Assembly (NCBI GenBank): GCA_016199805.1
Contig: JACQGC010000004.1
Location: 19,816 to 83,815, forward strand
Length of the DNA: 64,000 nucleotides
Source: Candidatus Nomurabacteria bacterium
Lineage (GTDB): Bacteria; Patescibacteriota; Minisyncoccia; Phycocordibacterales; UBA9973
Direction: 5' to 3'
In this document: positions 11,931 through 40,450 of the stretch, in pieces
Numbering within the stretch: position 1 is the stretch's first letter
Layout of the letters: each line of letters opens with the position of its first letter
The notes under the pieces: model-generated
What the model saw: the letters and a program-made list of their open reading frames with translations, nothing else
What the model was told of the DNA's origin: nothing
Databases searched by the model: none
Position numbers and translations under genes: made by a program

Positions 11931-11931
11931 T

Positions 11932-13095: not shown

Positions 13096-13108
13096 GCCCA
13101 AAGCGAAA

Positions 13109-13143
13109 GAGGCGCCAACGATCCGTTGGCGCCTCGCTTTTTA
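13109..13143 (+). terminator. rho-independent terminator
   Basis: GAGGCGCCAACG-ATC-CGTTGGCGCCTC perfect 12-bp stem followed by a T-run. Confidence 0.7.
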
Positions 13144-13383
13144 TAGATGCCTCGGCCTTGCATTGGAATATAATATATAAACCAAGGCCGTTATGAAAGA
13201 ACTACGCTCGCAACATATTGTTGTTTTTTCGCATAATCTCATTTCAAGAGCAAGGCACGACTGGCCCGTCAAGTTGTCCTTCGCGTATGCTCACGCATAA
13301 GCTCCAGATCTCCCTCAAGGCCAACTCGCCCGGGGTGAAATAAAATAGTTTGAAAAACAAAATATAAATGCGAGGCTAAAGAA

Positions 13384-14262: not shown

Positions 14263-14270
14263 GATTACTC

Positions 14271-15716
14271 CTAACTTTTTGGTCTTAGTCTCGTCAGGTC
14301 GTGTGGAATGTATATTTCAACTTCTGTCGCCTGAGCTATCGCCCGCTGAACTTTTTCCGCTATTTCTAAGCGAAAAAGTGACGGATTCCCAGTGTAGAGA
14401 GAAAGTTCTTGGTAACGCTTAGCAAGTTCCGGAGAAGCCTCAACCTCTTGCTTGTCACCCTTGGCGTTGATGACCACTTCAAACCGAACCTTGGGTTGTT
14501 CGGCGACCACGGCGCCATTCGTCTTCTGCGGCGCAGGCGGCGCAACTTCCAGAGACACCATTGGTCTGCCCACGATGGCGGGAACCCCGGTCTCCGGCGT
14601 CATTGGTTTACCCATAGCGAAAACCGAACCCTCTTTCTTTTCGTTTGCGTCGGGTAGGTTTCTGGGCGGGTCTTTCGCTACCGCCATTAGCCTGACCCTT
14701 TTTACACCCTTCTCCACGCCCCTTTTCTTTATGCCGAACTTCAACTCATACGGTTCACCGTGAACCATCTTTTTCCTGATACACTCCTGTATGGCCTCAC
14801 GGTCTTGAATGGGCCACCCTTTATCTGACTCATACCAAAGGACTACCCTCAGGGCGTTCTCAATAATCCTCGGATTGAGACATGGAGCGCCGCTAAACAA
14901 AACGTTATCTATGTCACCCAGGCTGTTGTTTGTGGCATCGAAAGATATGGGCAGAGCGTGGTTGCCCGTAGCCAATAACTTTTTCAAGTCGCTCAGGTCC
15001 AGGTCCCTGACATCCCCCCAATCCTGGAGCAACGATTTGTAAAAATCCAAGATCCAGAACAGGGACGTCTCGTTTATTTTCTGCCAGGCCTCTTCGTCGT
15101 CAATTGTTTTGTCCTGCCACCTCTCATTCTCAATGAGCGTGACCGTGCAATATTTCAAGATCCGCTCGTACATGTCTCCGCCGTGCCTCACCCGCTCCGG
15201 CCCCTCACCCACACTAGGCATTGCGAGGATGGCGTAAGTGGGTATATTCATCTTCTGGAGCATTTCTGCTACCGGTGGCACTGCGCCACAAGTACCGCCA
15301 CCCAAACCGGCGACCAAGCAGACACTATCATACTTGGCAAAAAGGTCTTTAAGGAGTTTTGTTTTTTCCTCTTCCTTGACCATCTCTTCGCCTTTGTTCG
15401 CATCGCCGCCAGCTCCCCAACCTTTTTCTCCCAACTGAAGTTTAAGAAAACGGTCCTCAAGACGAGTCCAGCCGAGCATATGACCACAATCTGCTTCTTC
15501 GCTTTGGTTGACTTCAAAACGATTCTTCAACTGGCTCTGATTGGACTCCATAGCCAAAACAGTCAGGTGGGGATTCATCTCTGGATCATATTTTCTGAGC
15601 ATTGCCGCAATTGCCGTCGTGCCGCAACCGCCGAATCCCACAACTAACAATTTTGCTTTTACTTTGGGAGCAATTACTTCCTCTTTTTTTTCAACCTTCA
15701 CGTCTTTATCTGCCAT
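14271..15716 (-). CDS. divergent FtsZ/tubulin-superfamily GTPase
   Basis: T1 loop VVGFGGCGTTAIAAM, T3-like GWGAGGDANKGEE, T4 signature VAGLGGGTCGAVPPVAEM (cf. FtsZ GGGTGTG); alignable to E. coli FtsZ over the GTPase domain; long divergent C-terminal half. Confidence 0.8.
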   Translation of the reverse strand: MADKDVKVEKKEEVIAPKVKAKLLVVGFGGCGTTAIAAMLRKYDPEMNPHLTVLAMESNQSQLKNRFEVNQSEEADCGHMLGWTRLEDRFLKLQLGEKGWGAGGDANKGEEMVKEEEKTKLLKDLFAKYDSVCLVAGLGGGTCGAVPPVAEMLQKMNIPTYAILAMPSVGEGPERVRHGGDMYERILKYCTVTLIENERWQDKTIDDEEAWQKINETSLFWILDFYKSLLQDWGDVRDLDLSDLKKLLATGNHALPISFDATNNSLGDIDNVLFSGAPCLNPRIIENALRVVLWYESDKGWPIQDREAIQECIRKKMVHGEPYELKFGIKKRGVEKGVKRVRLMAVAKDPPRNLPDANEKKEGSVFAMGKPMTPETGVPAIVGRPMVSLEVAPPAPQKTNGAVVAEQPKVRFEVVINAKGDKQEVEASPELAKRYQELSLYTGNPSLFRLEIAEKVQRAIAQATEVEIYIPHDLTRLRPKS

Positions 15717-15730
15717 CTCTTCTCTCCTCC

Positions 15731-16096
15731 TTACTCTTCGGATACAACTTCAAAACTTTGTTGCGCTTTGTACTTGAGATACGACGGGTCGCTGAATATC
15801 TCCAGAAGACGTTGCTGGATAAATGCCTTCACTTGCTCTTCGTCTGAATCACCCAAATCGGTGAAGACAAAGAACAGAAGCATTTCTACCGACCGCGTCA
15901 ATTTATCTCCTGACCCGCCAAGCTCAAGCGTCACCCCATGCTCAAACCTCGTCCTAATGTTGGACGCACTTGTTTCAAGACTTTCTTTGACGTCGGCAAT
16001 AATTGCTGCTCCGACGCTCATCAATTCCTCCCTCTCTTCGTCGGTAATTCTTCTCGGGTTATTATCTACGTCCGCGCTCCAGCTCCCCACGAACAC
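15731..16096 (-). CDS. island-encoded small acidic protein
   Basis: 121 aa, Asp/Glu-rich, directly upstream of the FtsZ-like gene on the same strand. Confidence 0.35.
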   Translation of the reverse strand: MFVGSWSADVDNNPRRITDEEREELMSVGAAIIADVKESLETSASNIRTRFEHGVTLELGGSGDKLTRSVEMLLFFVFTDLGDSDEEQVKAFIQQRLLEIFSDPSYLKYKAQQSFEVVSEE

Positions 16097-16220
16097 CCCC
16101 TTTCTTTTTACTTTTAATTCTCTTCTGTTTTCAACGAACTCGCAACGAACTAGAAAATGCCCATTGTAAAATTCTGTCTTGAGAATATCAAAACAGTTAT
16201 GAAAATATTATGAAAATAAA

Positions 16221-16295
16221 TGGGGTGGTTATCGGGGGTTGAACCCGAACTAAAAGCTCCACAAGCTTCTGTGCTGCCGCTACACCATAACCACC
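16221..16295 (-). tRNA. tRNA-His (anticodon GTG) with encoded G-1 and CCA
   Basis: Cloverleaf with 8-bp acceptor stem (G-1:C73), anticodon loop TTGTGGA, T-loop TTCAACC, 3' CCA encoded. Confidence 0.8.
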
Positions 16296-16320
16296 ATGTA
16301 CAAAAAACAACAAAACACTG

Positions 16321-16404
16321 TGCTCGGGGGGAGATTTGAACTCCCATGCCCTTGCGGGCGCTACCACCTCAAGGTAGTACGTCTACCAGTTTCGCCACCC
16401 GAGC
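16321..16404 (-). tRNA. tRNA-Leu (anticodon GAG), class II with long variable arm
   Basis: GCTCGGG acceptor, anticodon loop TTGAGGT, long variable arm GCGCCCGCAAGGGCA, T-loop TTCAAAT. Confidence 0.75.
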
Positions 16405-16446
16405 ATATTATGAGTATAGCAAGAGTTAAGAAAAAATAATAGAAAT

Positions 16447-16854
16447 TTATTCTGCAACTTTTTCTGCCACTTCTTCCTCTTCCACATTGGCGACGGAACG
16501 CATTTTACTGCGAACGTCTTTGATAGCTTTGGTACGAATGTAATATAGTTTGCTCCTCTTGGCATGAGACCTCTTGGTGATTTCAATTTTACCAACCATT
16601 GGAGAAAAAAGCGGGAAAATTCTTTCCACTCCCACCCCAGAGGCCACCTTACGAACAGTAAAAGTAGCGCCGACTTCGGTGCCATGTTTTCTAGCCAAGA
16701 CGATGCCTTCAAAAATCTGGAAGCGAGCCTTGCCTTTTTCATCTATTATTTTTGAAGAGACGGAAACTGTATCACCTGCTCTAAAATCAAGCTTTTTTCG
16801 AGCTTCAATATCCACCGGACTAAACTTTATTTTGTTGATTTTATTTCCTGCCAT
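16447..16854 (-). CDS. rplS: 50S ribosomal protein L19
   Basis: FRAGDTVSVSSKIIDEKGKARFQIFEGIVLARKHGTEVGATFTVRKVASGVGVERIFPL; start taken at MAGNKINK (the ORF-track N-terminus is an upstream read-through). Confidence 0.9.
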   Translation of the reverse strand: MAGNKINKIKFSPVDIEARKKLDFRAGDTVSVSSKIIDEKGKARFQIFEGIVLARKHGTEVGATFTVRKVASGVGVERIFPLFSPMVGKIEITKRSHAKRSKLYYIRTKAIKDVRSKMRSVANVEEEEVAEKVAE

Positions 16855-16922
16855 CCCATTAAAAAATTTAAATAATAAAAGTACTACTTCCTGCAAGTCC
16901 GTTGATTTTCTAACGGGACACG
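16855..16922 (-). promoter_or_regulatory. diverged copy of the upstream element upstream of rplS
   Basis: CATCCCA..aaaagtactac.. then tccgttgattttctaacgggaca; shares both halves with the rplK/nusG/tsaE/secE copies. Confidence 0.4.
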
Positions 16923-16979
16923 TTGCCAAAACACTTTAACATAAAAGTTTTTCAAAGGCAACTAAGAATTATTTTTAAA

Positions 16980-19900
16980 CTATTTCCCCAATATCATCAT
17001 GGCCTTGGTCTTGGGACCAATGAGTCCATCGGACACAAGCCCATGATTCTTCTGCCACTGTTTGATGACAGCGATAGTCTTTGGCCCAATTTTGCCGTCT
17101 AAAACCAAACCGAGTTTCATCGTGTCATTTAGATATCTTTGCAGTTCTTTAGCGGTATCGCCTATACTTCCTAGTTTAAGAGTAGTGAAACCGAAATTAT
17201 ACATCAGCGTAGGATTGATGGCAGAAACATTTATGGTGTTTGTGGTCGCAATCGCAGTTTTGGCGGCAACATTTCCCGAACAAGATTGTCCCGTGGCAGT
17301 ACTAAAGCCCGTGATTCTAGAACCACAACCTGGCATAGATATCGGAGTAGGAGGTGTATAGCTTCCTCCCCCTCCACCACCGCCACTACTTGGCACATAA
17401 ACCAAGGTAAAGTTCGCGGTAATATTTTTATCCGCATCCATAGAAACAGTCATTGGATTAGCTGAAGAGGTGATATCTCCAGACCAATCAGAGAATGCGT
17501 ACCCGGAATTTGGAGTTGCAGTGAGAATGATAGAACTTCCAAAATCATAGTTTGCCTGGTCTGGGTTTTTGGCAACGGTGCCATTGGTGGAGAGAATGGA
17601 TATTATATAGGTGATGATATTATCTTGGATTTGAGTTGTGGCGGAACTCAAGGAAGCAGAACCGGTGCCACTTGCAGAAGAAGGGGTCACTTGGAATTTT
17701 AAATATTGTCCAATATCGGAAGAAGTTAATATATATGTAATAGCGGTTGCGCCACCGATGGCAGTATATGTTCCTCCCGAGGAAGAGGAACGAAGCCATG
17801 CATATGTTGTGCCGGATTCGGGCAAACTATTTGGGTCAGAAAATGCGTATGAACCTGTCAGTGTTTGGCCGATTGTTTTTGTGCCAGAAATGGTGACATT
17901 GGTAGCAGTAGGTAAACCGAAAGATTCTGTCGCTTGAGATTTAATTACATATGATGCTTTGTTCCCTGCTTCGTCTTTAAGTATAACATTAAAGTAATAA
18001 GTGGTGGTGGAAGAAAGACCGGAAACAGGAAGAGTGTTGATGTCTGTGGTGTAAGTGTTGAGTGGTGTGCCATTGGCTTCAATATTGGTCACCGTATCGA
18101 TATTATTGGAAGATGATTGATACACCCTGTATTGTAGAACTCCCTGAGCCGAGACATCGTCTGTGCCTTTAGTCCAATTTAAAGTAAGACTACTTGTAGT
18201 AACACTTGCAGTGGTAATGACGCCACTTGCTCCCGGTGTGGGATTTACTAAATCACCCGCTGAACTAACCGCGACCGGAGCATTTAAACTCGTGGAAATA
18301 TTTCCGTTGGCATCTTTGGCCCAGGCATAAAGAGTTTTTGAGCCATAAGTGGAGAACGTGTAATTGGCAGGAGCACTTCCTGTCCAACCGGCATTTCCTG
18401 CCAAGGGCGCCGTAGGTGACTCAGTCAGAAGATATCCGGTGACGCCAATATCGTCCGTGGCGGTAAAAGAAGATACGGAAACAGTCAATGAACTGGAAGT
18501 AGCGGGAATTGAGAAAGCAGTTACAGTGGGGGCGACATCGTCATACACATATGGTCCTAGGTCCCAATCATAGTTGGCGCGGTCAAGCAATTGAATATTG
18601 GTATAGCTGGCCGGACTCAAACCCACATTGTATGGAACGCCAAGATTTGTCCCGCTATTGATGAGAGAAGAACCGGGGGAAAGTCTGTAATCACTTGTGT
18701 CTGTGTATGTTTTTGTCCACGACAGACCACCATCAGAAGTCGTATGCCCATCGGAATAAATACCTGCCGCGATGGAAGATTGGGTAACAAAAGTTCCTCC
18801 GAGATTTCTTATTTCATCCACAAACCAAATCAATTTTTGGTTTGTCACATTAACGGCATCGGTAAGGTGCCAAAACATTCCTATGTAACCACCTGCGGCG
18901 GCGGCCAATAAATAAGTGTGACGAGCCACTTTACGAATATCGGCTTCAGTACTAAATCCATTCATCGCCCAAGACATTGCTTGCCCGGACAACATATATG
19001 GGTGGATTGATGGCATATACATATACCCCCCACCGGCTGACCGGGCACTGGTAAATGTGGAAGAAATCGTTGGCATATACGCTTCAGCCCCCGCATCGGA
19101 CCATCCTCCTCCATATGCAAAAGAAACTGGAACTGTTCCGATGTTGGATGCAATCCAACCAGCTGAATCTAAAATTTCTTCATCTCTATATGCTGACATC
19201 AGCATATTTACAACGTATGGAAAGGTTGTGCTGGTTTGGTTATCCAATGCCTTCAGACGCACAGGGTCATTCATATTTGTTGTATTGCTGATGGTCCACC
19301 CTTTTCCGGTGGCAGAAAGTCCGACGCATGCATTCGCCACATTGATAGTTTTCTTAAAATCACATAATGTTTTGTCTGTTACTGACCAATCAATCAGAAT
19401 ATTATTTTCTGGGTTACCACTACTAGCCAGACTGAGGGTGTGAGCGGTCCTGTCTATGGTTACTGTATTAGTTCCGGAATTTGTTGTTGATACAGTAAAC
19501 ATAGAAGTTTTGGTGACATCCGAATGAGACCAACTGTGCGAACCAATTTCTATTCCCCTAGCAGGAAGAGATGACAAAATAGTTTTACCTCCGGATGAAA
19601 TTCCTGTAAGATTTGTTAAATACGCCAAGAAAGGGATAGTGTTTGTTCCAAAGGCCGCATCAAATGCATCTGCCAATCCGCTGGAATACGCGGGGATACC
19701 TGCATAATCATCTCCATCAATAGACAAAACAATTTTTACTGCAGGAAAAGGTAAAGCTTTAAAGTTTGGAACCGTAGAATAATTATGTCCTCCATCGGTT
19801 ATGGTTCCACTTCCGGAAAAATTACCAGCTATAAAAGAAGCAGTTGTAACTCTATTATTGCCGAGAATAAGACTATAATCATAATCAATAGTGTTGCCAG

Positions 19901-20549
19901 TGGCAACGGCAACTCCGGCCCCGCCTGTAAAAACTCCCGTGCCATAACCATTTCCTTCAATGATTGAATTGCGAACAGTTGTGATTGCCCCTGTGCCAGC
20001 CATAGAAATTGCCGAACCGGCACATTGGGTAATCAATGAATTGTTTAGAGTCACCGTTGCTGAGTTGGCAACAGACAAACCAATTCCGGCGGCACGGCGT
20101 ATTATTACATTAGATAAAGACAATGAATCGGAAGCTCCAACTGATACGGTCCCTTGAAAATCCAAATACTCCGCCTTGATTCCGGTTCTACCTGTAACCA
20201 TATTTATCGCATAACCACTGGAACCAGGAATAGCCGGAAGTGCTCCGGTATCAGCGACATCATATAGTGTATAAGTTATACCATTTTGGCTAGGAGATAT
20301 TGACTGAGCCCATGAACAACCACGTTTAAACATAACCGTGGCATTCAATCCAGCTGAGGTGTTAGCTTTGGTAATATTTTTCCAGGCCGTTGCAGGAGAT
20401 GTTCCATCTCCTGTATCATTTGCAGCATTGCAGTCAACATAATACGTTGTGCCACCAGCATGAACCATCTTTCCGAAAGAAAACAAAAAGCAACAGAAAA
20501 CCAAAAATACAAATATTTTTTCTGTTTTATTGATTTTAATGCGAAACAT
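16980..20549 (-). CDS. giant secreted protein: right-handed beta-helix + polysaccharide deacetylase (NodB)-like + Ig/FN3-like repeats + C-terminal peptidoglycan-binding domain
   Basis: Signal/TM N-terminus; beta-helix repeats (NSIIEGNGYGTGVF..GNTIDYD..); LSIDGDDY and IGSHSWSHSD NodB-like motifs; C-terminal LNDTMKLGLVLDGKIGPKTIAVIKQWQKNHGLVSDGLIGPKT PG_binding_1-like. Confidence 0.65.
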   Translation of the reverse strand: MFRIKINKTEKIFVFLVFCCFLFSFGKMVHAGGTTYYVDCNAANDTGDGTSPATAWKNITKANTSAGLNATVMFKRGCSWAQSISPSQNGITYTLYDVADTGALPAIPGSSGYAINMVTGRTGIKAEYLDFQGTVSVGASDSLSLSNVIIRRAAGIGLSVANSATVTLNNSLITQCAGSAISMAGTGAITTVRNSIIEGNGYGTGVFTGGAGVAVATGNTIDYDYSLILGNNRVTTASFIAGNFSGSGTITDGGHNYSTVPNFKALPFPAVKIVLSIDGDDYAGIPAYSSGLADAFDAAFGTNTIPFLAYLTNLTGISSGGKTILSSLPARGIEIGSHSWSHSDVTKTSMFTVSTTNSGTNTVTIDRTAHTLSLASSGNPENNILIDWSVTDKTLCDFKKTINVANACVGLSATGKGWTISNTTNMNDPVRLKALDNQTSTTFPYVVNMLMSAYRDEEILDSAGWIASNIGTVPVSFAYGGGWSDAGAEAYMPTISSTFTSARSAGGGYMYMPSIHPYMLSGQAMSWAMNGFSTEADIRKVARHTYLLAAAAGGYIGMFWHLTDAVNVTNQKLIWFVDEIRNLGGTFVTQSSIAAGIYSDGHTTSDGGLSWTKTYTDTSDYRLSPGSSLINSGTNLGVPYNVGLSPASYTNIQLLDRANYDWDLGPYVYDDVAPTVTAFSIPATSSSLTVSVSSFTATDDIGVTGYLLTESPTAPLAGNAGWTGSAPANYTFSTYGSKTLYAWAKDANGNISTSLNAPVAVSSAGDLVNPTPGASGVITTASVTTSSLTLNWTKGTDDVSAQGVLQYRVYQSSSNNIDTVTNIEANGTPLNTYTTDINTLPVSGLSSTTTYYFNVILKDEAGNKASYVIKSQATESFGLPTATNVTISGTKTIGQTLTGSYAFSDPNSLPESGTTYAWLRSSSSGGTYTAIGGATAITYILTSSDIGQYLKFQVTPSSASGTGSASLSSATTQIQDNIITYIISILSTNGTVAKNPDQANYDFGSSIILTATPNSGYAFSDWSGDITSSANPMTVSMDADKNITANFTLVYVPSSGGGGGGGSYTPPTPISMPGCGSRITGFSTATGQSCSGNVAAKTAIATTNTINVSAINPTLMYNFGFTTLKLGSIGDTAKELQRYLNDTMKLGLVLDGKIGPKTIAVIKQWQKNHGLVSDGLIGPKTKAMMILGK

Positions 20550-20553
20550 AATT

Positions 20554-23500
20554 TTATTGCACCAAAGAATACATCAAGGCTTTTGTTTTTTCACCGACGA
20601 CACCGTCTGCAAGCAATCCATGACTTTTTTGCCATTTCATAACAGCGGAAAGTGTTGTTGTGCCAAACTTTCCGTCGAGAACCAACCCGGCTTTTGATGT
20701 ATCATTTAAATATCTTTGCAATTCTTTAACCGCATCTCCCGCACTCCCTTTTTGTAGAGTGACGGTACCTAAATTATATTTTTGGGTACTAGTTGAAGGA
20801 ATTGGTTTTGTGGGTTTTGGCGGAATTGGAGTTGTATCGCCATTTTTAGGAGTGGAAACCGGTTGTGGAGTCGGAATGTCAACAGGAACAGGAGCAGAAA
20901 TAACGCCGGTTGATATTTCATAGACGTGGGCTTGGTACGGAGTAAAGGTGTCGGTAAAACCATTTCCGGAAACAGTTAGGTTTCTATTCTCACCATAAAC
21001 AGACACCAGTGAAGGTGTCGTGCTCCAAGTAAAAGTGACTGGAACAGTTGCATTGGTATTATTGGAAGCAATCAGATATCCTCTGCCACCTGCATATTTC
21101 ACTCTGGTGTGAATACTGCTGTTTGAGCTGAAAGAAAGCAGGTCATTCTTATCAATGGAAGACAAGGCCGGTTGGAGAGAATTGAGTTCTGTGGTTACGG
21201 CTTTGAGGTTGTTGAAATTATCAACTTTGGCCTGACACCACGAGAGCGAACCGGAAGGCGAATGAGCCGCATCGGAACCATCACAGATATACGCCAAAGC
21301 CCCAACACCCAAACTCCAATACACTAGCCCATCGCTCCCCTCGGCAATTGCCATATAGGACATATTGCGAAGTTCCGCTTGGGTCGGCCAGCGACCCTTG
21401 GAAGTAAATTTAAAGAATTGGATGACAGTGGCAACAGGTCTGCTGTTTTGCACGGCATCTTTTGTGATTTTTGTCTGATTAGCCACTAGAGAATAATCAT
21501 AACCGCTAGCTGGTTCTGCTCCGTACAAAGCGTATGGGTCCATGGAAAGCAGGTCAACGGTGTCTCGCCAGTAAGACATTGAGTTTGGAGTATTCCCTGC
21601 GCCAAAAGAAAGACCGATAGGGTCAAGATTTCTCAACTTGTTGTAATAAGTAAACATATCCGGCGCCAAATAAGACACACATTCGTCCATATTGTATTGA
21701 CCGGCAAAACCAGGATATTGGCCCCGAGCAACAATATCGGCATCGCTGAAAGTTTTTAACCAACCATCATCATAAGTACTGGTTGAAAAACAATTGGCGT
21801 TGGAAACAAGAGATATCCCATGTCTCTGTAAAACATTCATCAGCGGAAAGGCAGCGCTGTTTGGCATATTACCCAGCCAATAATTAAACCAGAAATTTAC
21901 CGGCAGTTCAAATAATCGCTTGGTAGAGGTGAGCGTGTTTTCCCAAGTGGTTTCGCTCATTGAGTATCCACCACCGGAATCATACACACCGAGCAAAAAC
22001 TTTGGCTGACCGTTAAATAAAATCTGATTATTTTGATTGAAGGAAATAGGAATGGAATTTCTGACAGAGCCGGAAACTTTGGAAATTCTATAAGACGGAT
22101 ATTCGTACAAAGCTACACTATTTGAACTGCGCAATAATTTAAACCGCGCCAAATAAGTATGGCCATTTGTCATGCTGGAGCCACTTAAAGTAGCTGTAAA
22201 ATCGGCAGATGATGAGTATGATTGGTTTGCAACCACGGAACCGCTGGATTCGTCTGTCAGAGTAATTTCCGGTTTCCAATCGCCAAGCGTTGTCCCAGCC
22301 GGAGGATTTATCTTTACATCAAATTTTATGGTCTGAGACTGGTCGTCAAAAAGAAATCCTTTATAATTTGGATAGAGCATAAATACATCCATGGGTGACT
22401 GATATTCTTCTTGTATCGCCATATCGTCAAACCAAGCCTGACCTGCCGGTTCATTCCAGCTTTCCAAAACAAATTTCACACTTGAAGAATCCTGATTGAT
22501 GACAACATTTTTTAACTCAACATATGTCCAATCATTGACTCCATTCAGACATTTACCCACCCCGTTTCCGGCACTGCCTGCGTTTACACTAATACGAACA
22601 CAGGGATGAATAGTAGTATCAACCAAGTTTGTTTTTATCCAACCGCTGATACGATAAGATCCTTTTTTCAAAGAAAGAGTCTGCCTGGCGGATTCCGTAT
22701 AGGGGAAACTGGGAGCGTCTTTCATACTATAACTACTTGCTCCGCCATGAACTGTAGAAGAATCAACCAGAAAAGCGGACGAACCCGACCAATTTGCCGG
22801 TTTACCACTGGATAATGTTTCAAAACCGGAGTTAAGTAATAAATTTGGACCGAGGCTAGCCATTGGATACCACATCAACCCTCCAGCCACCAATCCATTG
22901 ATTGGAGCAGACGGAGTCGGAGCATTAAATTCCATCATGTCACTTGCGCTACTACAACCTGGGTCATTCGGATAATCTATTTTGCCATCCAAGTCATTAT
23001 CAATGCCATCAGAACATTGTGGAAGGCTTGAATCTGGAAGAACAACGACGGGCGGAGTCGGGGTGCTGACTGGCGGTATATTTGTAGTTGGCAAGGTTGT
23101 CGTTGGAGTTGTCGGATTGTTGTTCGTAGGGGTTGTGGTAGGCGGTGGCGTGTTGCCGGTATTACTAATCATCACGGAAGCATCGTCAAACCAAGCTGTG
23201 CCATTTGGGTCTCCATACATTTCTACAACAAAGTAAGCCGGAGAATCATTGGTGATTGTGACATTCTGCACCTGTAAATATTGCCAGTCGCTGGCACCTT
23301 TTATGATTTGTGATGACTTACATCCATTAACGCAGGCATTTGGGTATACTCCGGTATTAAAATTTATTCTCAAACCACTACCAACCGTTGATGCTACCCC
23401 ATCCATTTTCACCCACATGCCAATATTGTAAACACCCTTTGGAAGGGTGCCGATAGTTTGCATTGCCGACTGGGAATAAGGTATCAAGTTTGCATTAACG

Positions 23501-23805
23501 ATTTTTAAGCTATGCGTTCCCGTGTGGGCCACACTCCCATCAACTGTAAATCCGTTTGCGCTCCAGCTCAGTGGTTTACTGCTGGTATCTGTGTTTTCAA
23601 AACCTCCATTGGTAATATATTCTGTTGTATTCAATACTTGCCCCTGCAGAGAAGAACTGGGAACATTTACAGGATTTGTATTTCTAACTGACACAAAAAT
23701 CACAACACCAATAAAAACAATAAACACAACCAGAGAATAGTGCGTTTTCAAAAAATTTTTTAACATAAATTTTTTAACAAAATTAATTAATAATTGATTT
23801 TTCAA
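20554..23805 (-). CDS. giant secreted protein: two CBM4/9-like carbohydrate-binding modules + central domain + C-terminal peptidoglycan-binding domain
   Basis: N-terminal TM; repeated GFENT..W..NGF..DGS.AHTG..S modules; Thr/Pro linkers; C-terminal SAGDAVKELQRYLNDTSKAGLVLDGKFGTTTLSAVMKWQKSHGLLADGVVGEKT paralogous to the neighbouring gene. Confidence 0.65.
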   Translation of the reverse strand: MKNQLLINFVKKFMLKNFLKTHYSLVVFIVFIGVVIFVSVRNTNPVNVPSSSLQGQVLNTTEYITNGGFENTDTSSKPLSWSANGFTVDGSVAHTGTHSLKIVNANLIPYSQSAMQTIGTLPKGVYNIGMWVKMDGVASTVGSGLRINFNTGVYPNACVNGCKSSQIIKGASDWQYLQVQNVTITNDSPAYFVVEMYGDPNGTAWFDDASVMISNTGNTPPPTTTPTNNNPTTPTTTLPTTNIPPVSTPTPPVVVLPDSSLPQCSDGIDNDLDGKIDYPNDPGCSSASDMMEFNAPTPSAPINGLVAGGLMWYPMASLGPNLLLNSGFETLSSGKPANWSGSSAFLVDSSTVHGGASSYSMKDAPSFPYTESARQTLSLKKGSYRISGWIKTNLVDTTIHPCVRISVNAGSAGNGVGKCLNGVNDWTYVELKNVVINQDSSSVKFVLESWNEPAGQAWFDDMAIQEEYQSPMDVFMLYPNYKGFLFDDQSQTIKFDVKINPPAGTTLGDWKPEITLTDESSGSVVANQSYSSSADFTATLSGSSMTNGHTYLARFKLLRSSNSVALYEYPSYRISKVSGSVRNSIPISFNQNNQILFNGQPKFLLGVYDSGGGYSMSETTWENTLTSTKRLFELPVNFWFNYWLGNMPNSAAFPLMNVLQRHGISLVSNANCFSTSTYDDGWLKTFSDADIVARGQYPGFAGQYNMDECVSYLAPDMFTYYNKLRNLDPIGLSFGAGNTPNSMSYWRDTVDLLSMDPYALYGAEPASGYDYSLVANQTKITKDAVQNSRPVATVIQFFKFTSKGRWPTQAELRNMSYMAIAEGSDGLVYWSLGVGALAYICDGSDAAHSPSGSLSWCQAKVDNFNNLKAVTTELNSLQPALSSIDKNDLLSFSSNSSIHTRVKYAGGRGYLIASNNTNATVPVTFTWSTTPSLVSVYGENRNLTVSGNGFTDTFTPYQAHVYEISTGVISAPVPVDIPTPQPVSTPKNGDTTPIPPKPTKPIPSTSTQKYNLGTVTLQKGSAGDAVKELQRYLNDTSKAGLVLDGKFGTTTLSAVMKWQKSHGLLADGVVGEKTKALMYSLVQ

Positions 23806-23832
23806 TAAAAAAACTCGACCTGTTGGTTCGAG
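23806..23832 (-). terminator. rho-independent terminator downstream of the Com-like gene
   Basis: Minus-strand hairpin CTCGAACC-AACA-GGTCGAG followed by TTTTTTT. Confidence 0.55.
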
Positions 23833-23865
23833 CTTCGCGAGCTTCTCTTGTTAAACTAATCCCTT

Positions 23866-24090
23866 CTACTTATCTGTATCTGGAATCAAACCTTGATTTA
23901 TTAACACCGCACGTTTTCTAATAATCTCTGCATCTGGCCCTTGAAAGAATTGTATATTATGACAATTCCGACATTTTACTTCCAGCATGTTGTCTTTATC
24001 CGTCAGACAACCCTTGCACAAAAGCTTGTCGCATTTATCGCACCGATATTCATTTAGTTCCATATTCCGCATTATACTACACGCAAGCAA
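23866..24090 (-). CDS. Com-like zinc-finger protein (phage Mu Com family-like)
   Basis: YRCDKCDKLLCKG...LEVKCRNCHNIQFF matches the Com CxxC..KLL...CxxC pattern; 74 aa; immediately downstream of a Cys-rich gene. Confidence 0.45.
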   Translation of the reverse strand: MLACSIMRNMELNEYRCDKCDKLLCKGCLTDKDNMLEVKCRNCHNIQFFQGPDAEIIRKRAVLINQGLIPDTDK

Positions 24091-24150
24091 AAAATCTATC
24101 GGAAGAAAAATGCCTGTGGATAACTCAAAAACACTGTTTTGTTGTAAAAA

Positions 24151-25848
24151 TTAGGCAAATTCCTGTTGGTAGCATTTTTCGCAGTAGACCGTCTCGGGTC
24201 TGCCTGGGGCAAAAGAGGTTCTGATTGCCTTGCCACACTTCATACACTGCCGGTCATAAAGTTTTGGCATTTGCAATTTATTAAAACGTGATTTTTCCCG
24301 GCACTTTAGACATCTACTCGGGAGCGGAATGTTCATTTTTCGCAAAAGGTCAAATTCGAGCGAAGCAATTTTGTATTTTCTGTCACAAGTCGTACAAGAA
24401 ATCACTTCTTTTAAGATTGAATCATTCACTTCGCCGATAGTTTCCGGAAAGTCTTCCCCTTTTATTGTCGCTTCCACTTGTTGTTCGGCTTCGTCGTTCC
24501 AAGTGTATCCCGCTTTCAGAGCTTCTTCTTTTGTTTTTGGGAAAAATTTAAAAGCGTTCGAATTGTTGTAAGCGAATTTACTGAAACCGGGCTGAAAAAA
24601 TTCTCCGTAAGGCCAAGCTCTGCCTTGTTCATCTATGTATGGATTATTTTTCATATCTTCAATGATTTTTTCTTTCAAAGCTTCATATTCTTCTTTGGAA
24701 TATTCTTTGTTCAAGATGCAATACGATTTTCTTTTTAGATTCACGCAACCGAAATTGTTTTTTGACGCCGGACACCAAAGACAATACTCGGAATTCAAAA
24801 CATCAGGAAAACAATATGCGGAAAACTTTACGTTGGCGACATTATCCCCCACGCTGGCCGACTCATACAGGAGCTCGGCATTAGCTCCCCAGCCGGAATA
24901 ATCCATGCAATCTTTTACCGGAGAGACGGAAATCATCTGGCACCATTTGCTGTTCTCAACCTTGCTACCAATATATATTTCTTTTGAATTTTTGGAATTA
25001 AACAAATATTCCCCGGTGACATTCAAGTTTAGGGTGTTCCCGGTGTAAAACCGATAGGGGTGTTCCAACCAAAATTTCTCTGCTTCCTTTTTCACTTTTT
25101 CAATTCCGGAACGCGTGTCCAGTTTCATTTCTTTTAATTTTTCCGCGTATTCTTCCTTAGAATATTTAACATTAAAAATACAATTTGAAGCGCCACGTAA
25201 ATTTACACAACCCACGCAATTCATAGAGCTGTAACAGTTGCGGGAAAACCATACATCGGTGCAAGCATCACACTCTTGCGAGTAAAAAACACGATAACAA
25301 TCATTCTGCCCGATACTTTCATAGCATAGTTCTGACTTGAATATGCGCAGAGAATCAGCTGTGTCTTTGGCTGTGTTTAAAATTGAAGAAAAATAAACGT
25401 TCTCACAATAGTCTGCTCCAGTAATCAAAGTACAATTCTTTGAATAAGCCAAGGCATTGCAATAATCACAATTTTTTAGTGTTAAAAAAGTTGATTCCAG
25501 CGCAACGTACGGAACTTTTTCTGACAATTCTTTTACCTGTTCTAGGAATGGTCGTTTTGAATCATAATCCATTGCGGATTCTGTGCCATCCCAATCATCC
25601 GCCCACCAGCATGGCTGACAAAATACTGTAATTTCTTGCTCCGGTGGATACATAGATAGTGTACGCTTGCCACATTTATCGCAATTTCGGTAAAAAAGCG
25701 ACCACCAGTTTATGCATGTAAAACGCCTAATCATCCGGCATTCCGGGCACCAGGTCGGTGCTGGGACTTTTATTTTTTCGTAAAAAGAAAAATCTGACTC
25801 TTCAACAACAAACTCCGATTTACAATTTTGACATGTTTTATTTTCCAT
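24151..25848 (-). CDS. large cysteine-rich protein with N- and C-terminal zinc-ribbon motifs (paralog A)
   Basis: N-term CQNCKSEF..FYEKIKVPAPTWCPECRMIRR, C-term CTTCDRKY..IPLPSRCLKCREKSR ... YCEKCYQQEF; internally duplicated Cys-ladder modules each ending KYSKEEY..LKE; paralog at 57686-59404. Confidence 0.6.
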   Translation of the reverse strand: MENKTCQNCKSEFVVEESDFSFYEKIKVPAPTWCPECRMIRRFTCINWWSLFYRNCDKCGKRTLSMYPPEQEITVFCQPCWWADDWDGTESAMDYDSKRPFLEQVKELSEKVPYVALESTFLTLKNCDYCNALAYSKNCTLITGADYCENVYFSSILNTAKDTADSLRIFKSELCYESIGQNDCYRVFYSQECDACTDVWFSRNCYSSMNCVGCVNLRGASNCIFNVKYSKEEYAEKLKEMKLDTRSGIEKVKKEAEKFWLEHPYRFYTGNTLNLNVTGEYLFNSKNSKEIYIGSKVENSKWCQMISVSPVKDCMDYSGWGANAELLYESASVGDNVANVKFSAYCFPDVLNSEYCLWCPASKNNFGCVNLKRKSYCILNKEYSKEEYEALKEKIIEDMKNNPYIDEQGRAWPYGEFFQPGFSKFAYNNSNAFKFFPKTKEEALKAGYTWNDEAEQQVEATIKGEDFPETIGEVNDSILKEVISCTTCDRKYKIASLEFDLLRKMNIPLPSRCLKCREKSRFNKLQMPKLYDRQCMKCGKAIRTSFAPGRPETVYCEKCYQQEFA

Positions 25849-25922
25849 AACTTTTTTGCAGCCTGCCCCGTATGAAGCTTTGCTTTCGTTCGGGGTTTTG
25901 GCAGACCTTGGTTTCCATTTAT

Positions 25923-26717
25923 TTATTTTATCACTTTTTCAAACTCCTTCGGAATTTTAGATTCTATTTTTACTGTTTTGCCTTTCATATCTTTAAATTC
26001 TATGGATTTGGCATGCAGAAACATGCGGATTCCTTTTTTTTCCTCCCCTGCGAAGGGGAGGCGTAGGAGGGGTGAACTTTTTGGATTATAAAGCGCATCT
26101 CCCGCCACCGGATGATTTAAAAATTTCATATGCACGCGAATTTGATGTGTCCGACCGGTTTTTGGTTTTAGTTCCAAATAGGTAAATTTCCTCCCCTCCT
26201 TATTGAGGAGGGGCTTCGGGGTGGTGATTTCTAATCTCTTGAGTACTTTGTATTCCGTAATCGCCTCCCGCATCTCTCCCCTAGCGCCGCGACCTGCCAA
26301 GCGGCGGCGAAAATCCGAAGGACTGCGGCCAATGGGTTTGTTTATCACTCCGCGGTCTTCTTTTACCCAACCGTCTACAATAGCTACATAAGTTTTTTTA
26401 ATATCTCTGCCCATAAATTGATTTTTTAAAAACTCATGCGCTTTTTGGTTTTTTGCCAAAAGCATTACTCCGGAAGTTCCGCGGTCCAGTCTGTGAACAA
26501 TGCCCGGCCGGTCTATTTCCCCCATCGGCTCCCCTACACCTTTCATTTTCGGATAATTTTTGATTATCCAACTAGTGATAAAAGTTTCTTTTTTTTTGCC
26601 ATCAGCGCCTGCCCCGTAGTGAGCTTGCTCTACTGCGGGGTGCACAGAAATGCCCCAAGGCTTTTCAATGGCCAAAATGTCTTTATCTTCGTATAAAACT
26701 TTGATTTTCATATGCAT
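25923..26717 (-). CDS. RluA-family pseudouridine synthase
   Basis: PGIVHRLDRGTSGVMLLAKN catalytic motif; carries two in-frame palindromic-element insertions. Confidence 0.85.
   Translation of the reverse strand: MHMKIKVLYEDKDILAIEKPWGISVHPAVEQAHYGAGADGKKKETFITSWIIKNYPKMKGVGEPMGEIDRPGIVHRLDRGTSGVMLLAKNQKAHEFLKNQFMGRDIKKTYVAIVDGWVKEDRGVINKPIGRSPSDFRRRLAGRGARGEMREAITEYKVLKRLEITTPKPLLNKEGRKFTYLELKPKTGRTHQIRVHMKFLNHPVAGDALYNPKSSPLLRLPFAGEEKKGIRMFLHAKSIEFKDMKGKTVKIESKIPKEFEKVIK
26038..26076. repeat. palindromic element copy inserted in-frame in the RluA-family gene
   Basis: cctcccct-gcga-aggggagg followed by aggaggggtgaac; encodes ..SSPLLRLPFAGEEKKG.. Confidence 0.6.
26189..26228. repeat. second palindromic element copy inserted in-frame in the RluA-family gene
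   Basis: cccctcct-tattg-aggagggg followed by cttcggggtggtga; encodes ..TPKPLLNKEGRKF.. Confidence 0.6.
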
Positions 26718-26803
26718 TTTGATTATACACTTTCAACCAACCAAGAGCTATAAACCTTCACAATTTTTGACATATTTATAAATATGTGTTAAATTGAATA
26801 GGA

Positions 26804-27514
26804 ATGAGGAATAAATTGTTCTTTCTGACAATCATCGTCATGCTCATGACGCTGGTTAACGGCCCTGTGAGGGCCAGCGTAATATATGTTGGAATCGAAG
26901 ACACTGCCCTCCCGGGCGGCGACAAAGATTACCAAGACATCATCCTCACAATTTCCGGCGCCACATTGGCCGGAAATTACGGATGGAAACCCATGGTCGC
27001 TCCAAATTACGACGGTGTTCCGTATTTCGACGGCGCCTCGTATGACGGGCCACACATGGGATTCATGGACTTCGCGCTCGGCACCGGCGGCTTTGCCGGA
27101 AACCCGACGAGTCCACACCTGACACTCGCAACAACCAAGTTCTGGGGATCAACAACAGGAAGCTACGATGCCTCCACTCACTTCACCAGCAATGGTGCGG
27201 TGGACGAGAACGTGCTGATTGAAGTGTCTGCCTGGTCTGGACAAAACACCTTGGGCTGGGCCAATACCGCATCGCTTTGGTTGGTCAACTCTCTCTCCGC
27301 CGATGCCGGCGGAAGTGTGTCATTCCGTCCGGGGAGTGATTTTGTACTTGTGTTTAGTTCTCCCGGTGGAAACATGAACCAGAAATGCGACGGTGAGCAG
27401 TTCGCATTTTTGGAGTCAGACTCGGCCCCCGAACCGGCCTCCATGGCGCTCATCGGCGGCGGGTTGCTGGGCCTCGGTTTCTGGAGGCGCCGAAAGAAAC
27501 AAGCGAAGCAGTAA
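26804..27514 (+). CDS. PEP-CTERM sorting-domain protein (secreted, Gly/Ala-rich), high GC
   Basis: N-terminal signal peptide; C-terminal DSAPEPASMALIGGGLLGLGFWRRRKK (PEP motif, TM helix, basic tail). Confidence 0.7.
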   Translation: MRNKLFFLTIIVMLMTLVNGPVRASVIYVGIEDTALPGGDKDYQDIILTISGATLAGNYGWKPMVAPNYDGVPYFDGASYDGPHMGFMDFALGTGGFAGNPTSPHLTLATTKFWGSTTGSYDASTHFTSNGAVDENVLIEVSAWSGQNTLGWANTASLWLVNSLSADAGGSVSFRPGSDFVLVFSSPGGNMNQKCDGEQFAFLESDSAPEPASMALIGGGLLGLGFWRRRKKQAKQ

Positions 27515-27632
27515 AGCACCAAGAGGGCTGAACTCTATAATCAGCTGGGAACGGAATCTCCGCTCTCAAAACCCATATCTAAAGTCGTTAAGATTTTCTT
27601 TCTAGAAAAACCCTGGCGGCTTTTTTAGTTTG

Positions 27633-27705
27633 TGCCCTCGGGAGGAATCGAACCTCCATCAAAGCCTTAGAAGAGCTTCGTTTTATCCATTAAACTACGA
27701 GGGCA
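27633..27705 (-). tRNA. tRNA-Arg (anticodon TCT)
   Basis: GCCCTCG acceptor, D-arm TAGTTTAATGGATAAAAC, anticodon loop CTTCTAA, T-arm GGAGGTTCGATTCCTCC; CCA not encoded. Confidence 0.75.
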
Positions 27706-28632
27706 AAATGAGCGCATGTGCACATTCTGTCCCTAGATTGGAACACCATACAGAATATAGTTGTAAGGTGGAATCAAGTTCTAGGGGGATTAACTAACAA
27801 GTATAGTATGGCTTAAATAGGCTTATTCTGCAAGTGTTTTATTTCGCTTTGATATATAAAATTATTACCTTAATGGTAGTAGAGTAGTTAGAGCACCCCC
27901 CCCGACAAGGTTAAGTTTAGTGATTTTGCAAACACGATGATAACATAGCTTAAAATGCAAAACGTTGATAAATATGAGTGTTCATAAAAATTGATGTTAT
28001 CATTTGTTATTCTTTTTATGGTTATATAATTTAAGACTGAAGCACTTTCTAATTGATAACTATTGATAACATTCTTAGAAAAGAAAATTGCTTTATGGTG
28101 GGAAAATAAGAAACCGCCTGTAGAAGCTCGGCTTCTTACAAGCGGGATACACGCCCCCATTTTAGTTTCTTTCAACGATAATTCTTGTCTTGCTTGCCAG
28201 CTTGGCGATGTCGGAATCGTCTCCGAACAGGATGTCCAGAACAGGTTGCTCCACATCGGGGCAAGTTGTTGTCTTGCCAAGACAGCAAACGATGCTCTGC
28301 GTCACTCCTTCCAAGTCCAATCCTCTGGGGGCACTCACGATTCTTACGAGCATAGGAACTCCTTTCAGAAAACACACTAACACGATTATTTACTCTTGTC
28401 TAGGGCAACGCAATGTTTTATTTTTATAAAATAGCACTAGCAATAAAGGCAATAATCCCAACAAAAATCATCAGCTTGAAGGAAAAACTTAGCAATAAGC
28501 AAGAACAGGTGGCTCTTTATAGCCTTTTCTTTGAGGAGTTCCCAACGTATGAAGAAATTGTTAGTGGAACACCGAAACTAACCTTAATTTTCAAGTTAAA
28601 TCAAGAAATTACTGACCAAAAATCTGATATAG

Positions 28633-28705
28633 TGCGCGATGTAGGACTCGAACCTACGACCTTGATGGTGTAAACATCCTGCTCTACCAACTGAGCTAAT
28701 CGCGC
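28633..28705 (-). tRNA. tRNA-Val (anticodon TAC)
   Basis: GCGCGAT acceptor, D-arm TAGCTCAGTTGGTAGAGC, anticodon loop TTTACAC, T-arm GTAGGTTCGAGTCCTAC. Confidence 0.75.
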
Positions 28706-28806
28706 GCAACAAACTTACATAATATATTGTACAGAAAAATGCCCTAAAATCAAGGTGTGGATAACTGGACTGGTAAGTTATTTATATAATATAGTATACT
28801 CTACTT

Positions 28807-29478
28807 ATGAAACTAGTCGAAAAGGAAGAAGCAAGAGCTCTGCGCAAAAAAGGATATTCCATGAATCAAATTGTGGAAAAAACAAGTTTTACAAAATCCA
28901 GTGTAAGTTTGTGGGTTCGAGACATTGTGCTAACGAAAGCACAAAAGAAAAAAATATCTAAAAGAGGAAGGAGTATGGCTTCTGTGGAAAAAAGAAGAAT
29001 TAATCGCCTTTTCAATGAAAATGAAAAAAGACAAATTATTATTGATAATGCAAAAAAAGATTTTACTAAAATTTCCTTGGATGAATTAAAGATCATTGGA
29101 ATCATTTTATATCTAGGCGAGGGTGGAAAAACTAGCCGGGGAATGGTTCGCCTAGCCAATAGTGACCCTGCTGTAATAAAAATCATGATGAGATTTTTTA
29201 GAGAAATTTGTGGAGTTTTAGATAATAAATTTCGGGCGAGTATCCATACTTTTGCGCATGCAGACATAGAAAAAACAGAAAAATATTGGTCAGAAATTTC
29301 TAGGATACCACGTAAACAATTCTTTAAAACATATATAAAACCAAGTTCCGCGAGCTTACAAAAAAGAAACACTTTACCGTTTGGAACTTTTGATATCTAT
29401 GTTTGTGACACAAAACTTTTTTTAACTATTATGGGCTGGATAGAAAAGATAAAAGAATTAACGATTAACGGTAGGTAA
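28807..29478 (+). CDS. HTH-domain protein with possible degenerate LAGLIDADG-like core
   Basis: N-terminal HTH-like ARALRKKGYSMNQIVEKTSFTKSSVSLWVRDI; central IGIILYLGEGGKTS resembles a LAGLIDADG-type motif; adjacent to tRNA-Val. Confidence 0.35.
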   Translation: MKLVEKEEARALRKKGYSMNQIVEKTSFTKSSVSLWVRDIVLTKAQKKKISKRGRSMASVEKRRINRLFNENEKRQIIIDNAKKDFTKISLDELKIIGIILYLGEGGKTSRGMVRLANSDPAVIKIMMRFFREICGVLDNKFRASIHTFAHADIEKTEKYWSEISRIPRKQFFKTYIKPSSASLQKRNTLPFGTFDIYVCDTKLFLTIMGWIEKIKELTINGR

Positions 29479-39703: not shown

Positions 39704-40450
39704 ATGACGAAAAACGTGTTGTTTGTGCTGTTGATTTTGGCGCTGGGCTTCTCGGCCTATGCGCAGGGACCTACACCTCCGGCCACAGAACCCACTGCCC
39801 CTCAAGAAGTAGCTGCTCCCGCATCCATCACCACGGCGCCGCTAGTCGACTACTGGAAGACCGCTGATGAATGCTTGGTTCTTGGACCTCGCACCCCTTT
39901 CTACCACCCCACCAAAACCCACGCACAGAAGTTGGGTAAAAATGAAGTGGTAGCAGGGTTGCCGCAATCCGGTTGCATTGAAATGGACCTTCCCGACCGA
40001 TTTGGGAAAAAAGGGTTCGTTCCAATTGAGACTGGTCGGCCGTTCGTCTATGACAAAACGAACGGCAAGATGTTGAGAATGCAGGAATGCAACAACAAGG
40101 CGTATTCCTTTATTCCATTCCCCACCCCACCCCCGCCCACCAACGGCATCGACGGCAAAGATGGCGCCAACGGCAAGGACGGACGTGATGGTGTCAACGG
40201 CATCAACGGTCGGGATGGTAAGGACGGTAGGGACGGAACTAGTTACATTCCACCCGCTCGTGTCAACACCCAACCCAGGAAGGGTTGGTTCGCTCGTCAC
40301 TGGAAGCCGGTTCTGGTTTTCGCTGCCGCTGTCGCAATCGGGGGAGAAGAAGCCGCGCGTCGCGCAGGTCGTGGTCAACATCCCACCCCAACCCCAACCA
40401 CCCCCACGGGACCCGGCGTCGTGACCAACCCCCCGGGCGCGGGTAAGTAG
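39704..40450 (+). CDS. collagen-like (G-X-Y repeat) secreted protein with C-terminal TM anchor
   Basis: Signal peptide; GIDGKDGANGKDGRDGVNGINGRDGKDGRDG; C-terminal WKPVLVFAAAVAIGG; GC-rich. Confidence 0.7.
   Translation: MTKNVLFVLLILALGFSAYAQGPTPPATEPTAPQEVAAPASITTAPLVDYWKTADECLVLGPRTPFYHPTKTHAQKLGKNEVVAGLPQSGCIEMDLPDRFGKKGFVPIETGRPFVYDKTNGKMLRMQECNNKAYSFIPFPTPPPPTNGIDGKDGANGKDGRDGVNGINGRDGKDGRDGTSYIPPARVNTQPRKGWFARHWKPVLVFAAAVAIGGEEAARRAGRGQHPTPTPTTPTGPGVVTNPPGAGK

Follow-up and report, generated by a model that had tools for sequence, protein, structure and literature searches.

A PEP-CTERM protein gene in a Nomurabacteria contig lies in a locus whose passenger domain appears to be exchangeable

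The question raised by this locus is whether a gene for a PEP-CTERM protein belongs in the genome of a bacterium of the Candidate Phyla Radiation (CPR), and what its sorting signal would do there. PEP-CTERM/exosortase sorting was defined as a feature of bacteria that possess an outer membrane along with loci for exopolysaccharide (EPS). The gene was found in a 64,000-nucleotide stretch of a Candidatus Nomurabacteria contig (JACQGC010000004.1, assembly GCA_016199805.1). This whole stretch is called the window here. An earlier reading of the same letters, made without database searches (the sequence-only reading), had drawn attention to the gene. We consider it probable that it is a long-resident, monocistronic CPR gene for a small cell-surface PEP-CTERM protein, sorted in the way proposed below.

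The open reading frame (ORF) at 26804-27514 is a real gene, and its product is a bona fide member of the PEP-CTERM domain family. The 236-amino-acid (aa) protein is an exact match to NCBI record MBI3888280.1, which is named "PEP-CTERM sorting domain-containing protein", assigned to Candidatus Nomurabacteria bacterium, and located on a contig of 214 kb. The name was thus already on record and the protein class is ordinary; the unusual part is the CPR host. The C-terminal end reads ...SAPEPASMALIGGGLLGLGFWRRRKKQAKQ, and the final 29 residues are PEPASMALIGGGLLGLGFWRRRKKQAKQ. This tail matches Pfam PF07589 with 29.1 bits (E 9.4e-7; gathering cut-off, 20.7) and NCBIfam TIGR02595 with 23.2 bits (cut-off, 16). 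The PEP motif occupies residues 209 to 211 at the extreme C terminus. It is followed by a helix in the AlphaFold2 (AF2) model at residues 211 to 235, with the basic cluster RRRKK at residues 228 to 232. In an alignment of 13 close homologues, P209 and P211 are invariant and E210 is present in at least 90%. A permissive pattern search over the window's six-frame ORFs (minimum length, 50 aa) retrieved one genuine PEP-CTERM tail. Two further short ORFs were flagged by the same scan. They lack a hydrophobic helix followed by a basic cluster and are not PEP-CTERM proteins. The signal peptide and PEP-CTERM tail that the sequence-only reading assigned to this coding sequence (CDS) were therefore upheld, the tail with scores above the curated Pfam and NCBIfam thresholds.

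The host is a CPR bacterium of the Nomurabacteria lineage, class Paceibacteria. NCBI assigns the adjacent RluA-family protein to Nomurabacteria as well, and the named close homologues of its gene are all from Nomurabacteria, Pacebacteria, or Paceibacterota. The genome had been described beforehand as AT-rich and small. The AT-richness is only moderate (42% GC), and the word "small" rests solely on the taxonomic assignment.

A jump in composition occurs at 26.8-27.5 kb. It could mean that an assembler joined a GC-rich segment of another organism to a CPR contig, and contamination or a chimera had been suggested for this reason. A check of the assembly had also been named, and it was made with the Logan assembly of run SRR12113408. 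This assembly is independent, is 100% identical to window positions 19118-27662, and spans the RluA/PEP-CTERM junction. The Logan contig stops inside the tRNA-Arg gene at 27662, and this end can be counted in favor of a chimera along with the compositional jump. The junction itself is the same in both assemblies. The promoter, signal peptide, tail, and 3' untranslated region (UTR) are kept in syntenic contigs of two unrelated JGI metagenomes, both flanks of the gene are syntenic with these contigs, and the GC excess recurs in related contexts. The identical independent junction and the syntenic contigs in two metagenomes exclude contamination or chimerism for practical purposes, and the chimera is left with next to no probability.

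The two syntenic contigs are L002 (JGI 3300035209) and L032 (JGI 3300037226). L002 encodes RluA, an orthologue of the PEP-CTERM gene with 62% identity, the same three small ORFs, PilM, a tRNA-binding protein, and RuvX, in this order. L032 contains the same block and also the TsaE, Sua5, reverse transcriptase, and Nramp neighborhood. The flanking proteins are 62-95% identical among the window, L002, and L032, and the three genomes are roughly equidistant. In L032, the slot divergent from RluA (5282-5941, minus strand) encodes a 219-aa PEP-CTERM protein with an unrelated passenger. This protein matches TIGR02595 with 23.2 bits, and its C terminus reads ...EAPEPTSIILFGTGVVVLSFLRWRRRRTKK. In a three-way DNA alignment, L002 and L032 share 83-86% nucleotide identity in the promoter, about 74-75% in the signal-peptide region, and 62-75% in the tail and 3' UTR, whereas their passengers are unalignable. 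BLASTP matches between the two slot proteins are restricted to both ends. The window and L002 have a common passenger, but their promoter and signal-peptide region are only 43-59% identical, so the locus is a mosaic. These alignments indicate a slot that retains its promoter, signal peptide, PEP-CTERM tail, and structured 3' UTR while its passenger is exchangeable, with a cassette-like replacement in L032. A related case was found in L007, where two adjacent PEP-CTERM genes with unrelated passengers contain a common 151-bp tail-plus-terminator module at 96.7% identity.

The promoter-like site (Table 1) is the best promoter consensus match in the region, where such sites are no more numerous than expected by chance. 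The sequence TTGAC...TGTGTTAAT is kept at the same position in L002 and L032. The 3' UTR has 75-90% nucleotide identity to L002 and is the top-scoring stretch of that alignment. Its equivalents were found at 4355-4466 in L002 and at 5176-5281 (minus strand) in L032, and it is still recognizable in L032 although the passenger there is swapped. RNAalifold on the three sequences gave 24 pairs, five of them with compensatory changes, mostly in hairpin H2. This covariation in three sequences is suggestive of a conserved structure. The single-sequence minimum free energy is -28.5 kcal/mol, with a z score of just -1.7. Both in the window and in the related loci, the element occurs as a single copy. 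It was not found in the viral contigs scanned. Rfam (E<=1) retrieved nothing from it or from the 927-bp spacer between the tRNA genes, apart from the tRNAs. Family members of other lineages each finish in a clear GC hairpin and T-run. PEP-CTERM genes have been noted as "single-gene operons" (PMC1569441), and the gene's own promoter and terminator-like end fit this description.

Table 1. Features of the PEP-CTERM locus in the window
Feature	Coordinates	Strand	Basis and remarks
CDS, PEP-CTERM protein, 236 aa	26804..27514	+	ATG-to-TAA ORF; = NCBI MBI3888280.1
Signal peptide, aa 1-24, predicted cleavage VRA/S	26804..26875	+	Hydrophobic segment 4-22, AF2 helix 2-17
Mature passenger domain, aa 25-207, predicted beta-sandwich	26876..27424	+	AF2; N-terminal acidic motif VGIEDxxLPGGDxDYxD
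PEP-CTERM sorting domain, aa 208-236: PEP, transmembrane helix, RRRKK	27425..27511	+	PF07589, TIGR02595, AF2 helix
Promoter-like site TTGACA, 17 nt, TG-n-TAAATT	26767..26795	+	Ends 8 nt before ATG; 10/12 consensus, extended -10 TG
Conserved 3' UTR	27515..27631	+	H1 27527-27545, H2 27546-27568, terminator-like hairpin and U-run 27581-27627
RluA-family pseudouridine synthase, divergent neighbor, synteny anchor	25923..26717	-	Pfam PF00849, 101.5 bits
tRNA-Arg(tct), downstream boundary	27632..27704	-	ARAGORN and Rfam, 71.5 bits
tRNA-Val(tac)	28632..28705	-	ARAGORN and Rfam; 927-bp spacer from tRNA-Arg, unique to this genome

The sequence-only reading had placed the gene between the RluA-family gene and tRNA-Arg(TCT), and the coordinates, the PF00849 match, and the tRNA calls agree with this. 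The stretch from the PEP-CTERM gene to the small-ORF/PilM block is rearranged in the three genomes (window, 27632-29478; L002, 4482-5405; L032, 4046-5166). The window contains tRNA-Arg (minus strand), the spacer without a supported ORF or RNA, tRNA-Val (minus strand), and an AT-rich 223-aa ORF (plus strand). L002 contains a 74%-identical 223-aa ORF (minus strand), tRNA-Val (plus strand), 13 bp, and tRNA-Arg (plus strand), which is an inversion. L032 contains a 250-aa ORF instead, and its tRNA-Arg and tRNA-Val genes are 119 bp apart and oriented as in the window.

The PEP-CTERM gene has a GC content of 0.551 and a third-position GC content (GC3) of 0.646, and the window has a GC content of 0.423. 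These values correspond to z scores of +2.4 (GC) and +2.6 (GC3) among 61 ORFs, which bears out the claim that the gene is far above its neighbors in GC. Two other ORFs in the window are equally deviant (10519-11199 and 39704-40450). Across nine low-GC contexts of relatives, the gene-minus-flank excess is about 0.12-0.21 (Table 2), and an excess of this size is also present in L034, which is not CPR-looking. L034 encodes two tandem family members at 10001-11701 (contig GC, 0.42), each about 12 GC points above the contig. A GC excess in PEP-CTERM genes is thus found outside CPR as well. In L008, an Acidobacteriota contig, the family gene and the contig are equal in GC content.

Table 2. GC content of PEP-CTERM genes and of the remainder of their contigs
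Locus	Gene GC	Rest of contig GC
Window	0.551	0.422
L002	0.553	0.365
L032	0.53	0.40
L004	0.55	0.44
L006	0.59	0.47
L007, first gene	0.52	0.38
L007, second gene	0.59	0.38
L016	0.573	0.433
L020	0.569	0.402
L024	0.508	0.369
L025	0.532	0.403
L034 (not CPR-looking)	0.54	0.42

A comparison of composition and codon usage had been named beforehand as a way to examine the gene. Re-encoding the window protein with bulk codons predicts a GC content of 0.487, which lies between the bulk ORFs (0.426) and the observed gene. About half of the excess is therefore due to amino-acid composition (the protein is 13% Gly and 9% Ala) and about half to synonymous choice. The codon half reflects C/G-ending codons and parallels rplK and an FtsZ-like gene, which are presumably highly expressed and shift toward GC likewise, by +0.04 to +0.05. 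The fraction of C-ending NAY/ATY codons is 0.33 in bulk genes and increases to 0.50 in ribosomal-protein genes and to 0.66 in the PEP-CTERM gene. In its four-fold codon families, T is the scarce third base and not G, which differs from the pattern of ribosomal-protein genes. Judged from these codon counts, translational selection is a plausible cause of the high GC3.

The comparison with L002 bears on the age of the gene. The two orthologues have a dN of 0.29, a dS of 1.74, and an omega of about 0.17, and the RluA flank has a dN of 0.13 and a dS of 1.07. The GC3 is still 0.60-0.65 in the window, L002, and L032 although synonymous sites have largely turned over. These substitution rates indicate that the gene is under purifying selection, that the divergence is old, and that the gene is long resident. 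With a dS of about 1.7, a GC3 that is held, and an excess that recurs in related contexts, the high GC is a stable trait of the gene class and not evidence of recent import.

Recent horizontal acquisition would make the gene an un-ameliorated GC-rich islet beside a tRNA gene, from a GC-richer diderm donor. The gene is 13 GC points above the window and adjacent to tRNA genes, as this would predict, and other observations point the same way. The PEP-CTERM genes of L007 adjoin a tRNA-Val gene and an IS30-like ORF. A large serine recombinase is encoded 3 kb upstream of the family gene in L025. The wider family is present in Acidobacteriota and other diderms. The contig with the closest RluA (L030, 73%) has a rearranged neighborhood and no PEP-CTERM gene beside RluA. 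A recent import is nonetheless improbable. The same slot is filled in two genomes whose flanks are only 62-95% identical, and the dS and omega values are those of an old gene under constraint. The high GC3 is maintained in all three genomes. Amino-acid composition accounts for one half of the excess, and the other half is shared in kind with rplK and the FtsZ-like gene. An equal excess was found in L034. An ancient transfer of the gene into CPR is a separate claim, and it is likely.

The closest relatives of the gene are on low-GC contigs with CPR-type gene content. In L004 and L020-23, PGI and ROK genes come after the family gene. The family gene is 58% identical between them, and the flanks are 78-82% identical. 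The TypA protein on L020 is 89% identical to that of Zambryskibacteria. L007 is from the Zambryskiibacteriota metagenome-assembled genome (MAG) PATE-6 (JASNZL01). It encodes three PEP-CTERM ORFs in 20 kb (9923-18359), the third 7 kb from the adjacent pair. All three are GC-rich against a background of 0.38, and the adjacent tRNA-Val has the anticodon gac. The source record of L024 carries the label '01um', which we read as a 0.1-um size fraction, and L025 is 75% identical to L024. L016-19 are tied to L025 through a 404-aa ORF with 63% identity. More distant members were found in Acidobacteriota (L008, three in tandem), a deltaproteobacterial MAG, and L034. This other CPR lineage (L024, 2027-4584; L025, 457-1989 and 5950-9678) encodes a secreted HExxH metalloprotease and TasA/camelysin-like proteins after the family gene.

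The 236-aa protein has an N-terminal hydrophobic segment at residues 4-22 followed by a VRA/S site, where the signal peptide would be cleaved. The small-x-small site at the end of the signal peptide lines up across the homologues. An AF2 run on a 4-sequence alignment had a pLDDT of 46 and was discarded. The model from a 66-sequence alignment was used instead. It has a pLDDT of 92.3 and a pTM of 0.85, and it predicts an all-beta sandwich followed by a transmembrane helix. A Foldseek search of the passenger against the PDB and BFVD returned noise only (E>0.02, TM<0.22). A profile-against-PDB sequence search gave no match.

The passenger is not covered by a curated family, and floc_PepA and DUF4114 both score below threshold. 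DUF4114 (PF13448) reaches 19 bits against a cut-off of 27, with residues 28-52 aligned to positions 61-84 of the 85-position model. It is matched at E<=0.01 by 42 of the 66 sampled relatives, and PF07589 is matched by 57 of the 66. The floc_PepA model (NF033554) matches residues 89-232, including the tail, with 31.2 bits (E 1.8e-7) and a cut-off of 80. The LPXTG model (TIGR01167) scores 11.3 bits against a cut-off of 15.9, and the protein has no LPXTG motif. Motifs kept in the family are VGxEDxxLPGGDxDYxD near the N terminus, PNxDGxP(F/Y)WDxxSxDG, and GTGGFxGNPxSP, together with the tail. Judged from its acidic DxDxD-type loop and the weak resemblance to PepA, the passenger may be a Ca2+-stabilized adhesive or coat protein.

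A word-indexed search retrieved only three relatives. A profile search run exhaustively over 1.84 billion cluster representatives retrieved 1,104 at E<=1e-3, of which 322 reach E<=1e-10 and 18 reach E<=1e-30, and most are 230-270 aa long. A metagenome scan seeded by the 4-sequence alignment retrieved 6 loci. A tblastn search of PLSDB plasmids with the 236-aa protein gave no match, and a viral-contig scan for the protein family gave no phage link.

The gene would be transcribed from its own conserved promoter, and transcription would end at the conserved terminator-like hairpin. The 236-aa precursor would be exported by Sec with its cleavable signal peptide. The mature part of about 180 aa is predicted to fold as a beta-sandwich, and its acidic DUF4114-like loop probably binds Ca2+. 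The C-terminal PEP-CTERM helix and basic cluster would then keep the protein in the cytoplasmic membrane. Last, an exosortase/archaeosortase-type membrane enzyme, encoded elsewhere in the genome, would cut at the PEP motif and fix the protein on the surface. We give this final cleavage, which would parallel that of archaeosortase substrates in single-membrane archaea, a slightly better than even chance.

Several points weigh against the proposal. No exosortase or archaeosortase homologue was found among the polytopic membrane ORFs of the 64-kb window, which agrees with the statement of the sequence-only reading that none was visible there. The window has four such ORFs, and they encode YhhQ, NRAMP, a MacB-type permease, and an ABC-2 permease. 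Precomputed Pfam lists and polytopic-ORF scans covering about 0.3 Mb of related loci likewise gave no exosortase or archaeosortase. The polytopic ORFs of the window and 34 loci are transporters, ACR3, WcaJ, GspF, or ECF components, or have no family. The window contains a single PEP-CTERM gene, and genomes with a PEP-CTERM system typically have several PEP-CTERM proteins, with a median of eight (PMC1569441). CPR bacteria have been proposed to lack an outer membrane (bioRxiv 10.1101/2025.01.22.634366). Among the publications searched, none connects CPR with an exosortase or archaeosortase. The reading of codon bias as a sign of expression draws on very few reference genes, and the four-fold third-base pattern is only partly like that of ribosomal-protein genes.

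Some of these points would fit an orphan signal, in which the genome has no exosortase-type enzyme and the tail is a relic of an old diderm transfer that serves as a bare anchor, leaving a type I membrane protein on the CPR cell surface. For stop-transfer anchoring, a hydrophobic helix with RRRKK behind it is enough. CPR genomes are also reduced, and the missing exosortase, the lone PEP-CTERM ORF in 64 kb, and the envelope proposed for CPR are all as expected of such a relic. A plain anchor needs no PEP motif, yet PEP followed by a small residue and S/T is present in all 12 proteins of CPR-type contexts, which span four unrelated passenger domains, despite saturated synonymous divergence. This retention suggests that the signal is read. 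The tail module also stays when the passenger is swapped, and in L007 it is homogenized between paralogues. We regard the orphan signal as rather unlikely and retain sorting by an enzyme encoded elsewhere as the preferred reading. A broader version of it can be put forward only tentatively. Paceibacteria-type CPR may run a genuine PEP-CTERM pathway with an unrecognized exosortase/archaeosortase-like enzyme, and highly expressed slots whose passengers are swapped by recombination may provide modular surface variation.

The PEP-CTERM/exosortase system as defined requires the EpsH partner and multiple substrates, in a host that has an outer membrane and genes for EPS (Haft et al. 2006, PMC1569441). 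Membership of this gene in the system defined in 2006 is unproven. The gene resembles the system (EpsH, XrtA/XrtB) in its signal peptide, diverse passenger, tail above cut-offs, and single-gene transcription unit. It differs in its host, a CPR bacterium proposed to be without an outer membrane, and in its one copy in 64 kb. EpsH/exosortase, an EPS locus, and the PrsK/PrsR/PrsT regulators were not seen among the window ORFs scanned, and no EPS or outer-membrane biogenesis genes were found among these ORFs, which cover 64 kb and not the whole genome. The proteobacterial type has an upstream sigma-54 site with PrsK/PrsR/PrsT, whereas the promoter here looks sigma-70-like (TTGACA/TGnTAAATT).

PepA is described as a flocculation-associated PEP-CTERM protein of Zoogloea resiniphila (Gao et al. 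2018, as cited in PMC11393006). The 236-aa protein is similar in length to its 261-position model (NF033554) and weakly similar to it over residues 89-232, tail included. It differs in scoring far below the 80-bit cut-off, its N-terminal GxED...GGDxDYxD motif is outside the match, and no floc or EPS context was apparent. The likeness to DUF4114 consists of the acidic motif of residues 28-52, which aligns with the end of the model. Only the last third of that model is matched, and the remainder of the beta-sandwich lacks a curated family and, by Foldseek, a PDB neighbor.

Archaeosortase A (ArtA) of haloarchaea, an enzyme of the exosortase family, acts on PGF-CTERM proteins, with a tripartite C-terminal signal, a single-membrane cell, and a surface-anchored protein (PMC7157517). 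It shares with this locus a tripartite tail in a cell with a proposed single membrane and offers the best functional analogy for the CPR envelope. Given the proposal that CPR have no outer membrane, ArtA/PGF-CTERM offers the nearest working analogy, and not the outer-membrane- and EPS-linked XrtA. ArtA differs in its motif (PGF versus PEP) and belongs to another domain of life. No archaeosortase homologue was identified here, and the lipid anchoring known from ArtA substrates is only an analogy. The LPXTG/sortase system of monoderms also has a motif, a hydrophobic helix, and a basic tail, in an envelope similar in type to that proposed for CPR. The motif here is PEPAS, and the LPXTG model is below threshold.

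The window contains other features of interest. It encodes a diversity-generating retroelement at 8644-11199. The reverse transcriptase is at 8644-9639 (minus strand), and an Avd-like ORF is at 9749-10006 (plus strand). The template repeat is at 10031-10148, and the variable repeat is at 10523-10640, at the 3' end of ORF 10519-11199 (minus strand). All 18 differences between the two repeats (18/18) fall on template adenines. The role of retroelement target accounts for the GC-rich ORF 10519-11199. The reverse transcriptase/bAvd/Nramp neighborhood is also present in L032. A GC-rich ORF beside Sua5 was considered as a feature conserved with L002 and rejected, because the two ORFs are not homologous and that of the window is the retroelement target. 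The ORF at 39704-40450 (plus strand) has a GC content of 0.577. It encodes a secreted protein in which some stretches are Pro/Thr-rich and others are collagen-like (Gly-x-y). A hydrophobic segment lies close to the C terminus, and the family matches of the protein are all below threshold.

Two paralogues of about 570 aa were found at 24151-25848 and 57686-59404 (both minus strand). They have treble-clef zinc-finger ends and near-identical N termini (M..K.CQNCK..F..E..DF.FYEKIKVP.PT.CPECR). One of the pair is of average GC content, and the second is AT-rich, with a GC of 0.32. At 16980-23805 (minus strand), the window encodes two very large secreted proteins, of 1189 and 1083 aa. Each has a terminal PG_binding_1 peptidoglycan-binding domain, a mode of wall attachment unlike the PEP-CTERM tail nearby.

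Retention of a PEP-CTERM family by purifying selection in two or more CPR lineages can mean one of two things. The sorting system may reach cells proposed to be single-membraned, where it would work more like an archaeosortase. Alternatively, the signal can persist as a bare anchor. The case also shows that, in a CPR genome, a jump of 13 GC points can arise without contamination or recent transfer. Surface proteins are the likely contact points of ultra-small episymbionts with their hosts, and a conserved slot with an exchangeable passenger would offer a handle on that biology.

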